Assembly: GCF_024298765.1 (NCBI RefSeq) | Contig: NZ_CP101210.1 | DNA from: Escherichia coli | Lineage (GTDB): Bacteria > Pseudomonadota > Gammaproteobacteria > Enterobacterales > Enterobacteriaceae | Strand: one strand, 5' to 3' | Length of the DNA stretch: 64,000 nt | Shown here: positions 93 to 4,856 of the stretch, in pieces | How the letters are laid out: each line of letters begins with the position of its first letter | Position numbering within the stretch: the stretch's first letter is position 1 | Notes under the pieces: generated by a model | The model's database searches: none | Told to the model about the DNA's origin: nothing | The model's input: only the letters and a program-made list of their open reading frames with translations | Position numbers and translations under genes: made by a program

Positions 93-182
93 ATGGACAC
101 GCTGACACAAAAGTTAACCGTGCTCATTGCTGTACTGGAGCTATTAGTGGCTCTGTTACGGTTGATTGATTTGTTGAAGTAA
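93..182 (+). CDS. 29-aa hydrophobic type I toxin-like peptide (ZorO/ZorP-like), copy 1
   Basis: ATG at 93 preceded by RBS AGGAGAG; translation MDTLTQKLTVLIAVLELLVALLRLIDLLK; single predicted TM helix; long leader; hairpin 206-225 downstream. Family assignment from memory of the EHEC zor-orz locus. Confidence 0.6.
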   Translation: MDTLTQKLTVLIAVLELLVALLRLIDLLK

Positions 183-379: not shown

Positions 380-462
380 ATAAAAAAACCTGCTGGTGAG
401 GCAGGTTCTTTTATTTACTACTTTGATGTTAAGTTACTGATAGTGCAACATGGCATCTCAAC
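380..462 (-). ncRNA. Candidate antisense antitoxin sRNA (Orz-like), about 83 nt
   Basis: Minus-strand sigma70-like promoter (TTGCAA-17-TATAAT; -10 at plus coordinates 469-474), and an intrinsic terminator (hairpin 388-407 then T-run on the minus strand). The 5' part is complementary, with mismatches, to the motif GTGCAACATGGC...CTCAAC.AACG found in both peptide leaders (1-25, 607-631). Confidence 0.5.
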
Positions 463-468
463 GAACGA

Positions 469-519
469 ATTATAACCACCTCTGGACAGTGTTGCAATTA
501 AGATAATGAGATTTATAAT
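469..519. promoter_or_regulatory. Back-to-back sigma70-like promoters sharing one palindromic -35 (TTGCAA at 492-497)
   Basis: Plus strand: TTGCAA(492-497)-16 nt-TATAAT(514-519), predicted TSS near 527, giving a ~174-nt leader before the ATG at 701. Minus strand: same TTGCAA, 17-nt spacer, TATAAT (469-474 read on the minus strand). Confidence 0.5.
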
Positions 520-700
520 CCTGACTGTTGGGAAGTTGCGCCGGATCGAACCCATTTCAAGTCCTGGCTACCGGACGGGTGGTGCCGCAGGTAGTGCTCT
601 GATCCGGAGTGCAACATGGCGACTCAACAAACGTAAACCAGTATCGACAGGCAGTGTAAGGGTAAGGTGCTGGTGTTGCGCTCCTTAATAAGGAGAGCGG

Positions 701-790
701 ATGGACACGCTGACACAAAAGTTAACCGTGCTCATTGCCGTACTGGAGCTATTAGTGTCTCTGTTACGGTTGATTGATTTGTTGAAGTAA
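701..790 (+). CDS. 29-aa hydrophobic type I toxin-like peptide (ZorO/ZorP-like), copy 2
   Basis: Translation MDTLTQKLTVLIAVLELLVSLLRLIDLLK, one A>S change versus copy 1; same RBS and the same downstream hairpin at 814-833. The listed 60-aa ORF 506-688 is a frame artefact of the leader. Confidence 0.6.
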   Translation: MDTLTQKLTVLIAVLELLVSLLRLIDLLK

Positions 791-813
791 TGGGCAAATT
801 GAAACGCAACTAA

Positions 814-836
814 GGGGGAAAACCGCTTCCCCCTTT
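814..836 (+). terminator. Stem-loop after peptide copy 2
   Basis: Same GGGGGAA/TTCCCCC hairpin as at 206-225. Confidence 0.5.
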
Positions 837-842
837 AATAAA

Positions 843-1163
843 CTAATATTCTATTAGTTGGTTGAATATATTCTGTAGTTCACGATTAAAAATTGCTATT
901 ACAGTTTCAGGTGATTCACCTCGTAATTTCCGCTCATCAATACACTCATCTCTTATATAAATCAACGCATCATTTATTAGCGGGTCAGCATCTTCTCGAT
1001 CACGTTGATGAAATGTTGGACGTAGCCGGAATCGCTCCAGTCGATAGACGGAACCTGTAAATAATTCAGAGCATTTATGGATCTCAAGTCTGAAGGAAAA
1101 CGGATCTTCAGGTACAGGGACCTCATAATCGTAAATAGCAACCAGCTCTTTTTGCACGATCAT
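843..1163 (-). CDS. yehK: YehK, small uncharacterised protein
   Basis: 106-aa ORF; recalled as YehK from its position downstream of yehI and its length. Confidence 0.7.
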   Translation of the reverse strand: MIVQKELVAIYDYEVPVPEDPFSFRLEIHKCSELFTGSVYRLERFRLRPTFHQRDREDADPLINDALIYIRDECIDERKLRGESPETVIAIFNRELQNIFNQLIEY

Positions 1164-1223: not shown

Positions 1224-4200
1224 TTAATGGAAAATGACGTCAGGTGCGCTTAACGCCTCACTCAAATCAAACACATCAAGTTCGGCAAAAGTGACGGATT
1301 TATTGTCACTGTACACTCGAAGAGAACGGAAGCTCATTAGCGCTTTGCTATCAACATTGTAGTGGTTAAAACCGGGTGAAAACTTAAGGACCAGCCGGTA
1401 CTCACCCAGGTCATAGACAAATGCGTCCTCATAGCCTGACTCCCAGCCTTTGTATCGCATTCCCATAAGTTGCCCAACGGTAGCAGATTTACCTTCCCAG
1501 CGATTCAAACTATTACTGGCTGACTCGTCAGGCGTGAGCAGCACCGTGCGCCGTGTCAACTGGCGAAGTGGCGGTATAATTTCGTAATCGGCAAAAAGCT
1601 GGGCAAATTCACTGCGCATTTCTGCTGTCATTTCTAACGGGTGGGCAATGCCAATCAGAGCATCCGCAGGCAGGTCAATTGGCTCATCCTGCGCATTGCA
1701 GAACTCCCCCTCTGCGGCCACACGAAAGGCGTTGAGTAAACGACGCGGTTCATTTGCCGGATACACGCCCCATATGAATCGCTGGGTAACCAGGCGGGTA
1801 AAGGGATGATTAACAAACAGAGTATGAAAATCTGCCAGCGACCAGCGTCGGGTGGTACGTAGGGCAGCTTCAAGACGCGGGAGCAGGTTTTTGCTCACCT
1901 GAGTAGCATCTTTTTTTAGCCCTTTTAGTCGGGCCAGTGCCTCGGGCGCTTTCAGTTGATCGTCATCGGCGCGCAACCGGGGAACGCTTTTCTGGCGAAC
2001 GTTTTGCTGATCAAAGATAACCGGGTTGAGGTTTTCATCGAAGCGAACGGTAAACTGCCGGGGACCAAAATCAAAACTCAACGCCTGCGGATCATCAAGG
2101 CCCAGGGTTGGGACTAATCTGTCCGCTAGCTCTTCCTGGCTTAGCCCGCGATTTTCTGCGACCACCTGAAGAAATTCCGCCGCGTTATCACGTAAGGGGC
2201 GGGATTTAGCCCGTTGCGATATATGATGCAGCTGTATCAGCGCCATATCATTATTCATCAGGGTAAGGATGTTCAGGCCGCTGACAGCACGGGCAGATTT
2301 GCCTTCTTGTGGCCAGGCGAGGATCTGTGTCGTCAGATCCCGTGCCGTGCTTTCGTCACCAAAGAGACTTAACGCCAGAAATGCCCAGTTGTCTTTTGCG
2401 GGGGCACCAGCTTGTTGCCACGCAGTGAAGAGATCCCAGGCAAAAGCTGCCAGCGTTTGTGGCTGGCAGAACGTTTTCAGTTGTTCCAGCCCGCTATAAA
2501 AACGTCCCCCCTGGGTAAAGCGCAGCATTTCGCCGATAATTTCCAGAGCGTCACCGGTAACAGGCTGATTATTAGTGATAAGTCGAGGCCTGGACCACAT
2601 TGCCGGATGCCAGAAATCAGGGGCTTTTGGAATGCGTGCCGGGTAAATGTCCATTGGACCCTGTTTAAGCAACTGCTCCAGGGCAGACCATACATCTGTA
2701 CGCTGCCAGCGGTTTGCCACGGTTTGTAGCAATTCGCCATGTCCCTGTTCGTACAGTAAACGCAGGGCAAGTAATGCGGCTTCGCTATTATCGCTGGGTT
2801 TGGTAAAGACAAGAGGGATAAGTGCACTAGCCGTATGTTCCGGCCATTGTAAAATCCACTGGCGAGCCAGATCACGCTGCGCCGCGAAACGTCGCCAGAC
2901 GCGGGCAACAGGCAGCGCCAGTTCTGTTGCGCCAAAATTTAAAATTAACGGAAATGTTTCTTTTGGACGATGTGAAAAAGCCAACAGCAGACCTGGTAGC
3001 GCATCCAATCCGAGGATACTGAGAAAATAGTCCTCACCCGCGAACAGATGCTTTTTCTCAATGATACGCAGCCAGAAGGTCAAAGCCATCTCACGCGGCA
3101 ACTGTGCCAATAAATACAGGTTCCAGACACTCTTTTCCGGACGATAACGTGAGAAGTTGTCATTTTCCCATATGTTAATTAACGCTTCTATGTGACCGCT
3201 GCGGAGCGCCTGTTCTGCTAATTGTGCTTGCGGGGAGTTCCAGCCATTCAGGATCTCTTCAACCCGCCCCTGGTAGTAATGCCACTGAACAATGAGTGAA
3301 TTGCGTGCAGCATCCAGTTTTCCGGGGAGTATATAATTCAGAAACAGCCATACATCATCCCCAAAACCCAGTTCCTGTAATACAACTCGTCCACTTTTTT
3401 GTTCCATGCGTTCCGCAAGAGATTCCGTGCTGAAATAACGGGCAGACTCAGTGGCGGCAAGCCTCTCTTGTTCGCCTGGTTGCCAGTAAATTTGCGGAGT
3501 TAATTCGAGCGGTGCCAAATCAAGACGTGGAGCTGTCATTTTTTTCTTACTACGCCACGGTGGTGAAACGAGCATTTCAGGCAGACTGCTGTTATCGGTG
3601 CTATCAATAACCGGTTTTGGCGGTGCCGATAAATAACTATTCAGCACTGCCCTGGCTTGAGTACTTAACCACGGCATCACCCTTTCTGCTAGTTGTGGCT
3701 GCGATGCTATCAGCGTTTGTAACAGCGTACGCCAGTATTCATCGCGTGCTTTTTGCTGTGCAGGCAGCTTTTTGTCTTCGATGATTGGATAACCTGGGCG
3801 GGCTGGTGGTTCTTTTAACGCCAGCAGTTCTGCCAGTGCGGCGAGTGTCGCATGGGGGAAGTTTTTACTGTATTTAGCCACACGTTGCAGGCTGGGTTTG
3901 TTTTTATCAGCAACTAACAGCAAGGTGCGGATGACTTGCGGATGGTTAATTTGTACCAGCAGACTGCCGCAATCTTCTTTATGGGCATATATCGCGAGGC
4001 GCGGAACGGCTGCCAGTCCTTGTTCGCGCAAAAGGGCGGCGCAGGCCGCGTAGCCGAAGTGGTTTTCATGCGACATGTAGCTGGCTTCTCGATCGCTAAA
4101 TACGTCCAGGCCCCAGCATCGTTCGAGTTTTTTTACCGCCGTATTATCAGTAGCAATGACCTTTAACCACTCCTTTGAATGGAGACTTGACCGGGAGCTT

Positions 4201-4856
4201 TCAAGACTGGCGAGTTCATTGGCTATTTCAGGTTTTTCCGGGAGGAGTAGTGCAATAAAAGGACGGCGAATTTTGGGTATTCCTGGCAGTGCGGCAATGA
4301 GTTTGTCGGCGCAACGCTGCCAGCTGCTTTCCTCTGCCAGAGAGAGATGCTTACGCAGTCGGAGATCGAATTCGTTATAGGTTTCTGAGCGATAACCATA
4401 GCCATAATCCTCGTCCTGATACTGCAATGTCACTAGCAGAGGATCACTCTCATAACATCGTGTAATAAACTGGCGTGCAATCACCACCTCAGTCGCATAT
4501 TCCAGCCCCTCTTGTTGGACGATTTCGTCGAGCAACTGTTGGCTGTCCTTTTGCGCGATACAGGCTAGCACCGCCATTGTGCGGGCCGGGACTGAGGGTT
4601 TGTGTTCGCCGATCAAGTTGATGGCCTGCGTAATGGCGGACTGCCACTCCAGTGAAAAATTTTCATAACGCCAGACAATGTTTTTTTTCTTCTCAGCTTT
4701 TTGTAGCAATTCATCACCCAGTGTCTGAATGATGCTTTCAGTGATAACAGGCACCGGTTCGCCCGGCCAATTGCGATGGCTGAGTGGTGTTTTGCCTTTT
4801 TTATATTTCAGTTCCAGTTGAGCGTTATCCGCCAGCCACGGTAATTCCTTGTCCAT
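1224..4856 (-). CDS. yehI: YehI, large DUF4132-family protein (1210 aa), paralog of MolR without the N-terminal WGR region
   Basis: 1210-aa ORF; long blocks near-identical to the upstream ORF (e.g. FDLRLRKHLSLAEES...LIALLLPEKPEIA); 9-bp gap to molR suggests an operon. Confidence 0.85.
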   Translation of the reverse strand: MDKELPWLADNAQLELKYKKGKTPLSHRNWPGEPVPVITESIIQTLGDELLQKAEKKKNIVWRYENFSLEWQSAITQAINLIGEHKPSVPARTMAVLACIAQKDSQQLLDEIVQQEGLEYATEVVIARQFITRCYESDPLLVTLQYQDEDYGYGYRSETYNEFDLRLRKHLSLAEESSWQRCADKLIAALPGIPKIRRPFIALLLPEKPEIANELASLESSRSSLHSKEWLKVIATDNTAVKKLERCWGLDVFSDREASYMSHENHFGYAACAALLREQGLAAVPRLAIYAHKEDCGSLLVQINHPQVIRTLLLVADKNKPSLQRVAKYSKNFPHATLAALAELLALKEPPARPGYPIIEDKKLPAQQKARDEYWRTLLQTLIASQPQLAERVMPWLSTQARAVLNSYLSAPPKPVIDSTDNSSLPEMLVSPPWRSKKKMTAPRLDLAPLELTPQIYWQPGEQERLAATESARYFSTESLAERMEQKSGRVVLQELGFGDDVWLFLNYILPGKLDAARNSLIVQWHYYQGRVEEILNGWNSPQAQLAEQALRSGHIEALINIWENDNFSRYRPEKSVWNLYLLAQLPREMALTFWLRIIEKKHLFAGEDYFLSILGLDALPGLLLAFSHRPKETFPLILNFGATELALPVARVWRRFAAQRDLARQWILQWPEHTASALIPLVFTKPSDNSEAALLALRLLYEQGHGELLQTVANRWQRTDVWSALEQLLKQGPMDIYPARIPKAPDFWHPAMWSRPRLITNNQPVTGDALEIIGEMLRFTQGGRFYSGLEQLKTFCQPQTLAAFAWDLFTAWQQAGAPAKDNWAFLALSLFGDESTARDLTTQILAWPQEGKSARAVSGLNILTLMNNDMALIQLHHISQRAKSRPLRDNAAEFLQVVAENRGLSQEELADRLVPTLGLDDPQALSFDFGPRQFTVRFDENLNPVIFDQQNVRQKSVPRLRADDDQLKAPEALARLKGLKKDATQVSKNLLPRLEAALRTTRRWSLADFHTLFVNHPFTRLVTQRFIWGVYPANEPRRLLNAFRVAAEGEFCNAQDEPIDLPADALIGIAHPLEMTAEMRSEFAQLFADYEIIPPLRQLTRRTVLLTPDESASNSLNRWEGKSATVGQLMGMRYKGWESGYEDAFVYDLGEYRLVLKFSPGFNHYNVDSKALMSFRSLRVYSDNKSVTFAELDVFDLSEALSAPDVIFH

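Follow-up and report, generated by a model that had tools for sequence, protein, structure and literature searches.

The zor-orz locus was discovered in Escherichia coli EDL933 (Fozo et al. 2010, PMC2887945), where small RNAs (sRNAs) of ~85 nt were detected and the start of each of the two mRNAs and two sRNAs was located by primer extension. The zorO/orzO pair of EDL933 was later established as a true toxin–antitoxin (TA) pair, the toxicity of Zor and the rescue by Orz both having been demonstrated, and the first 18 nt of OrzO were found to be enough for repression (Wen et al. 2014, PMC3919570). The zorO mRNA carries a 5′ untranslated region (UTR) of 174 nt (Wen et al. 2017, PMC5397157). In these studies control of the locus is attributed to pairing by the 5′ end of Orz, to RNase III, and to the delta-28 processing of the UTR (PMC3919570, PMC5397157). 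A survey of 2,439 loci has since defined O, P, and Q types; its Table 3 gives a −35 of TTGCAA and a −10 of TATAAT for zor and orz alike, with −35 percentages that are equal for the two genes, 99.4 for each in full loci and 99.7 for each in orz-only loci (Shore et al. 2024, PMC11264685). The available text of the zor-orz papers, figures aside, contains no discussion of a single hexamer serving both promoters or of the consequence of such an arrangement, and a non-exhaustive search of the literature returned nothing relevant on a shared palindromic −35 at divergent promoters.

Three other loci, shoB-ohsC, tisAB-istR, and dinQ-agrAB, are like zor-orz in combining a small hydrophobic toxin and a long, processed 5′ UTR with a divergent sRNA of ~80 nt that pairs by its 5′ end. 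Their promoters are laid out differently. In shoB-ohsC of K-12 the −35 hexamers (GTGACC at 914..909 and TTGTAA at 984–989 of record L016) are ~70 bp apart and the starts ~143 bp apart, in agreement with Table 2 of PMC11264685. In tisAB/istR-2 of K-12 the −35 regions are ~10 bp apart and the starts ~81 bp apart, and a LexA box is present; IstR-1 is transcribed from a promoter of its own. At dinQ, the promoter overlaps a pair of LexA operators (PMC3567139). In our own reading of the dinQ/agrA sequence, the dinQ promoter lies ~10 bp from the TTGCAA of agrA, and the hexamer is not coincident. LexA boxes are evident in the SOS-type toxin promoters of tisAB and dinQ; at zor none was found in 440–560. 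An exactly coincident −35 is thus specific to zor-orz among the four E. coli divergent-antitoxin loci compared.

Interference between polymerases at close back-to-back σ70 promoters is familiar from lambda PR/PRM, with starts 82 bp apart, from crp and its divergent promoter, and from aroP P1/P3. In these cases the interference is exploited by way of a regulator (CI, CRP, and TyrR), and the −35 elements of the lambda promoters are separate. The zor-orz promoters are likewise divergent and close, but no regulator is known for them. The bidirectional promoters described by Warman, Grainger, and colleagues resemble zor-orz in another respect, in that a symmetric core element is read on both strands; binding of one polymerase excludes the other, as would probably be so at zor-orz, and competition is a possible regulatory layer. 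Those promoters, however, have the −10 in common, with starts about 10, 18, or 23 bp apart, whereas zor-orz shares the −35. With separate −10s and starts 65 bp apart, zor-orz lies outside the class as defined (a shared −10, with starts about 7–25 bp apart), and separate divergent promoters are explicitly placed outside it (Warman et al. 2026, PMC12825309).

The Second zor-orz Copy in the Window

The window, that is, the whole 64-kb stretch of E. coli DNA that was analysed, contains the 3′ part of one zor-orz copy (copy 1) and the entire second copy (copy 2, Q type). Positions 469–519 are the promoter core of this second, zorQ/orzQ-type copy of a known type I TA locus. The two open reading frames (ORFs) encode 29-aa peptides with the sequence MDTLTQKLTVLIAVLELLV(A/S)LLRLIDLLK, and Rfam family RF02083 (OrzO-P) matches the minus strand at 455..382 with 91.7 bits (gathering score 60). 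The locus is followed by yehK (843–1163) and yehI (1224–4856), both on the minus strand; in matching genomes yehL is found upstream of zor-orz, and the yehK/yehI–yehL position expected for the locus is the one observed. Of 5426 complete E. coli genomes, 5231 contain a match to a 121-bp query spanning the promoter core. In its position between yehK and yehL, its 29-aa toxin, its RF02083 match, its 174-nt UTR, and its hexamers, the window agrees with the described zor-orz, and no structural difference was found. The initial annotation had taken a plus-strand promoter for a peptide mRNA and a minus-strand promoter for an sRNA to be a TA pair, and this is indeed the zor-orz system. The promoter elements in the window are already known from publication, and the locus has been studied experimentally. 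In RefSeq/PGAP the zor ORFs and the orz sRNA are unannotated in all E. coli records opened, including that of K-12 MG1655, which contrasts with the experimental evidence and with the existence of an Rfam family.

The 5′ UTR of copy 1 (1–92) extends past the start of the window. In a record from the same strain (L001, in which 2802 corresponds to window position 1), the orz gene and dual promoter of copy 1 are found ~100–150 bp upstream of the window, with the promoter core at 2650–2700. The copy-1 zor UTR contains a 12-nt tandem duplication, GGTGGTGCTGCA (L001 2760–2790; alignment columns 211–222), which accounts for its length of 186 nt versus 174.

Transcription starts were assigned to the Q allele from homologous alleles, primer extension having been carried out in EDL933. 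The published 174-nt UTR, counted back from the start codon (701−174), and the absence of indels relative to EDL933 zorO between the −10 and the ATG place the zor start at G527, eight nt downstream of the −10. On the orz side, the primers used to clone orzO and orzP (EF541, CCAGCCGTGGTTATAATGACGTCGTTGGAACACG; EF537; EF976; PMC3919570, supplement) put the AatII site GACGTC exactly at the native 6-nt discriminator, so that the sRNA begins GTTGG..., and its start by homology is G462, seven nt after TATAAT. The two starts, 462(−) and 527(+), are separated by 65 bp. Initiation had been predicted near both positions, and the prediction agrees with the published mapping in the EDL933 homologues, as given by the 174-nt UTR and the orzO/orzP primers.

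Table 1. Features of the zor-orz region, in window coordinates
Feature	Position	Strand	Remarks
zor copy 1 ORF, 29 aa, identical to ZorO	93..182	+	ORF list, script
Orz antitoxin sRNA, orzQ-type allele, ~82 nt	381..462	−	5′ end G462; 3′ end after U-run at ~381
orz terminator hairpin	387..407		terminator-like on plus strand too
Orz 5′ pairing region, nt 1–20	443..462	−	complementary to zor 5′ UTR 608–628
orz promoter −10 hexamer, TATAAT on minus strand	469..474	−	reading and scan; invariant in 10 distinct alleles
orz-side spacer, 17 bp	475..491		length fixed, sequence hypervariable between allele types
TTGCAA, palindromic −35 common to both promoters	492..497		4/6 consensus in either orientation
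zor-side spacer, 16 bp	498..513		fixed length, variable middle, conserved GAGATT beside −10
zor promoter −10 hexamer, TATAAT	514..519	+	reading, scan, script, allele comparison
zor 5′ UTR, 174 nt, from G527	527..700	+	Orz target ~608–628; RBS AAGGAG 690–695
zor copy 2 ORF, 29 aa, MDTLTQKLTVLIAVLELLVSLLRLIDLLK; published ZorQ variant (A20S)	701..790	+	ORF list; ZorQ per PMC11264685
GC-rich hairpin after zor stop codon, putative zor terminator	812..835	+	yehK follows on opposite strand

K-12 carries an orz-only allele with a P-type core (NC_000913.3 2204345–2204395; record L003, 1128–1300), in which the full dual promoter and ~28 nt of the zor UTR are kept. The retained length of UTR equals that of the piece which, as published, delta-28 processing cuts from zorO, and the orphan zor promoter reads into the 3′ end of yehK in the antisense direction. 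The predicted starts of this core are 2204402(+) and about 2204337(−). Term-seq 3′ ends are recorded on the plus strand at 2204446 and 2204485 (Adams 2021, supplement). Measured from the predicted start at 2204402 to the second of these, OrzP has a length of 84 nt, which fits northern blots. The 3′ end at 2204446(+) lies inside OrzP and implies a short form of ~45 nt that keeps the pairing region. Among the 3′ ends of Adams 2021, none was found on the minus strand near the remnant zor promoter of K-12.

The predicted fold of Orz consists of a 5′ tail, a small hairpin, and the terminator. The terminator hairpin at 387–407 is probably bidirectional, and may insulate the dual promoter from read-through of the upstream zor copy 1. 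With RNAduplex, the Orz that starts at 462 pairs with positions 81–103 of the downstream zor UTR at −34.4 kcal/mol, compared with −22.6 kcal/mol for the UTR of copy 1; the sRNA of copy 1 shows the mirror preference. The stronger duplex has 6 + 13 pairs with one internal mismatch, in keeping with the published pairing rule, which calls for 15 or more contiguous pairs, or for 17 or more where there is one mismatch. By predicted pairing, the Orz of the window is the cognate antitoxin of copy 2 zor. The 5′ UTRs of zor (window 570–600), tisB, and dinQ contain a common motif, AAGTCCTGG(C/T)...ACGGGTGGTGCCG, located in K-12 at 484–515 of record L028 for tisB and at 507–543 of record L029, minus strand, for dinQ. 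As far as sequence comparison goes, this indicates that the three toxin leaders are homologous; the motif is probably a known 5′ structure or standby element.

The Shared −35 Hexamer and Its Conservation

Direct reading, a promoter scan, and a script agree on the arrangement ATTATA-N17-TTGCAA-N16-TATAAT at 469–519, and so bear out the initial description of a palindromic TTGCAA lying 16 bp from TATAAT on the plus strand and 17 bp from TATAAT on the minus strand. Within the hexamer, the TTG of each promoter is the CAA of the opposite one. In the promoter scan the zor-side (+) and orz-side (−) promoters each match the consensus at 10 of 12 positions. On both strands the spacing falls in the 16–18 bp range of σ70 promoters and the start, as taken from the homologues, comes 6–8 nt after the −10. 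In the 64-kb window the complete 51-bp pattern is found a single time, and it appears in none of 100 dinucleotide-preserving shuffles, even with two mismatches permitted. Under a relaxed criterion of at least 9/12 consensus positions, the window holds 35 promoter-like sites on the plus strand and 39 on the minus strand, and only the pair at 469–519 uses one −35 hexamer for both strands; any pair with a shared −35 appeared in 5 of 200 first-order Markov simulations. The back-to-back promoters at 469–519 are real and not the product of chance.

Cores from other genomes were collected by anchoring on the flanking transcribed sequence rather than on the hexamers themselves. The sources were the window, 15 E. 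coli records across identity bands, E. whittamii (two copies), and two other Escherichia species taken from a GTDB-wide scan with a 19-mer from the orz terminator; ten distinct 51-bp cores from four Escherichia species were obtained. Besides E. coli, the scan returned three Escherichia species only, apart from chance matches in unrelated phyla. Across the ten cores, none of the 18 hexamer columns is variable, compared with 20 of the 33 spacer columns (Fisher p = 1e-5), and the spacer lengths are 17 and 16 in every case. Between O and P types, as many as 8 of the 17 and 4 of the 16 spacer positions differ, and among the O, P, and Q types and the Escherichia species the spacers appear to diverge more than does much of the transcribed flank. 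For the variability at 475–491 and 498–513, both relaxed constraint and a tuning of promoter strength are conceivable.

TTGCAA is fixed at six of six positions in all ten cores. In a typical −35 most of the constraint is borne by TTG (PMC3247240), and since the TTG of each promoter is the CAA of the other, fixation of all six positions is what would be expected of a hexamer used on both strands. The bases adjoining TTGCAA vary, so that no alternative conserved −35 is available; in these ten alleles TTGCAA, which the initial annotation had assigned as −35 to both promoters, is the sole conserved candidate for either. The combination of invariant hexamers and spacing with diverging spacers shows that the elements matter, though it is not proof of an interaction between the promoters. 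Conservation of the hexamers within the genus is partly a matter of phylogenetic inertia and of gene conversion between paralogues, but the variable spacers argue against these as the full explanation. The promoter pair is a real, conserved, and functional feature.

In the O type only, the palindrome around TTGCAA is extended, to CACTCCATTGCAATTCAGTG (record L002, 1783–1802), in which 9 of 13 positions are symmetric; the P and Q types each have 5 of 13. The extended symmetry was considered as a conserved operator and rejected on account of this restriction to the O type. It could be an allele-specific protein site.

In K-12 the −35 elements of agrA and agrB are also TTGCAA (record L029, 628–633 and 859–864), with 17-bp spacers and starts at the annotated positions. 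The Orz region of the window gives a weak match, of 33.6 bits, to the Rfam model of ohsC. Together, the TTGCAA of agrA and agrB and the ohsC match suggest that the divergent antitoxin sRNAs of E. coli may share ancestry down to the promoter.

One natural allele departs from the common design. In E. coli Z1323CEC0015 (NZ_CP148423.1), an insertion sequence (IS) with a frameshifted integrase-core CDS lies in the zor-side spacer, right after TTGCAATTCAGTG (record L027, 6140–6165 and 7235–7275). In this strain orz retains its −10, its spacer, and TTGCAA; zor retains only its −10, and the end of the IS provides TACACA at the position of the zor −35. As read from its sequence, the allele is a natural uncoupling of the zor and orz promoters. 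The possibility that it represents a toxin-only allele was rejected, orz being intact beyond the IS.

Polymerase Occupancy and Its Possible Consequences

The following mechanism is proposed. A minus-strand σ70 promoter (TATAAT at 474..469, 17-bp spacer) would start the ~82-nt Orz at 462, a plus-strand σ70 promoter (TATAAT at 514–519, 16-bp spacer) would start the zor mRNA at 527, and both would use the palindromic TTGCAA at 492–497 as their −35. Polymerase on the antitoxin promoter would partly occlude the toxin promoter, and this occlusion would add a modest transcriptional bias to a control that is mainly post-transcriptional. Two constitutive promoters would thus be in competition, with no regulated reciprocal switch between them. 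Taken as a whole, from the identity of the locus and its two promoters to an occlusion that favours orz and to competition rather than switching, this reading seems quite probable.

If a canonical open-complex footprint of −55 to +20 is assumed, polymerase at zor would cover 472–546 and polymerase at orz 443–517. The overlap of 46 bp (472–517) contains the entire shared hexamer and part of each promoter's −10. Because no more than 65 bp separate the starts, and two σ region 4 domains would need the same six base pairs in opposite orientations, one polymerase at a time is expected, and on this model simultaneous occupancy of the zor and orz promoters is likely to be sterically excluded. As to which promoter would prevail, the A+T content at −60 to −40 is 76% for orz and 57% for zor, and the orz −10 is partially extended, with a G at −14, whereas the zor −10 lacks an extension. 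The orz promoter would be the stronger by virtue of its optimal 17-bp spacer, as against 16 bp, its G at −14, and its A+T-richer upstream flank. The orz orientation is therefore probably favoured, a judgment made from consensus rules only.

How much occlusion would result depends on how often the promoters are occupied, and here the bidirectional promoters are instructive. At five E. coli promoters with a shared −10, basal activity was too low for competition, which appeared only when one direction was strongly activated (Warman et al. 2026, PMC12825309). Given that result, occlusion at zor-orz may be negligible. It is possible that the promoters are independent in practice, with the shared hexamer no more than a compact layout, occupancy brief, and control entirely post-transcriptional. 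Such independence would be in line with the finding, at the same five promoters, that a knock-down of one direction did not raise the output of the other (PMC12825309), and with the fact that all documented regulation of zor-orz, namely Orz pairing, RNase III, and delta-28 processing, acts at the RNA level. The perfect −10s and near-optimal spacing, however, argue that zor and orz would be stronger than typical basal promoters, and with such −10s they may be more active than the bidirectional promoters of Warman et al. The invariance of the 17/16 geometry and of the six hexamer positions, despite diverging spacers, also speaks against it to the extent that it shows the elements to matter, if not to interact. 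We give independence somewhat less than an even chance.

The initial annotation went further in the opposite direction and proposed that the shared −35 could be a hard-wired either/or switch that makes transcription of toxin and antitoxin reciprocal. Anticorrelated bursts and cell-to-cell heterogeneity would then be possible. The likely steric exclusion is consistent with such a switch, and polymerase interference is known to change expression noise at bidirectional promoters (PMC12825309). The levels of Orz sRNAs are high during exponential growth and drop in stationary phase, and differing expression of zorO and orzO with carbon source is mentioned by the authors (PMC2887945, PMC3919570). 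Against it, a factor that would tip the balance is not known; a recent review describes zor-orz regulation as still undeciphered and names no regulator that flips the balance (2025, PMC11951105). No LexA box (CTG-N10-CAG) and no CRP site were found in 440–560, the best CRP-like match having 4 of 10 mismatches. Among the relatives, tisAB and dinQ are regulated, but with LexA boxes and separate −35 elements, and competition requires high occupancy. Since no regulator and no anticorrelation are known and competition is seen only at high activity, a hard-wired reciprocity goes beyond the evidence and is unsupported, and a switch of this kind seems unlikely. It is similarly doubtful that the conserved 17/16 geometry around one palindromic −35 turns each initiation into a choice between toxin and antitoxin, in the manner of a stochastic toggle with anticorrelated bursts and heterogeneous toxin expression.

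A coupling of opposite sign can also be imagined, in which the shared element, and negative supercoiling arising between the close divergent promoters, tie toxin transcription to antitoxin transcription. Silencing or mutation of the −35 of the antitoxin promoter would then weaken the toxin promoter as well, as a fail-safe. By construction, any change in TTGCAA alters both promoters, and the −35 conservation figures of zor and orz in Table 3 of PMC11264685 are identical. Topological coupling of divergent bacterial promoters is documented (PMC5175336), and reciprocal stimulation is mentioned in the abstract of the bioRxiv version of Warman et al. On the other hand, the changes in Orz level with growth phase were reported without matching zor data, and the linkage is breakable: in Z1323CEC0015 the IS has cut zor off from the common −35, and the hexamer stays with orz. 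Protective coupling is therefore considered quite improbable.

Given their perfect −10s, either promoter, or both, might depend little on a −35. An equally improbable reading, that TTGCAA is truly used by one promoter only while the other runs from its perfect −10 and nothing is functionally shared, could appeal to the mere 4/6 consensus match of the hexamer and to the tolerance of consensus −10 promoters for a weak −35 (PMC12825309, introduction), but it is set against the invariance of both palindrome halves and both spacer lengths in ten alleles whose flanks vary, and against an extended −10 that is partial at orz (G at −14) and absent at zor.

Implications for Type I Toxin–Antitoxin Control

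In its present form the finding recovers promoter elements already in print and contributes a simple hypothesis that is amenable to mutagenesis. Its only novelty is the proposal that polymerases exclude one another at the shared −35, which is sterically plausible. The toggle reading, if it were true, would mean that type I TA systems have a level of transcriptional control not described so far, and that symmetric promoters with a shared −35 form a second class beside those with a shared −10. Under the preferred reading, in which occlusion modestly favours the antitoxin, a real competition caused by the shared −35 would likewise add a transcriptional layer to a system that is understood only at the RNA level, and the rules of symmetric promoters would then extend from a shared −10 to a shared −35.
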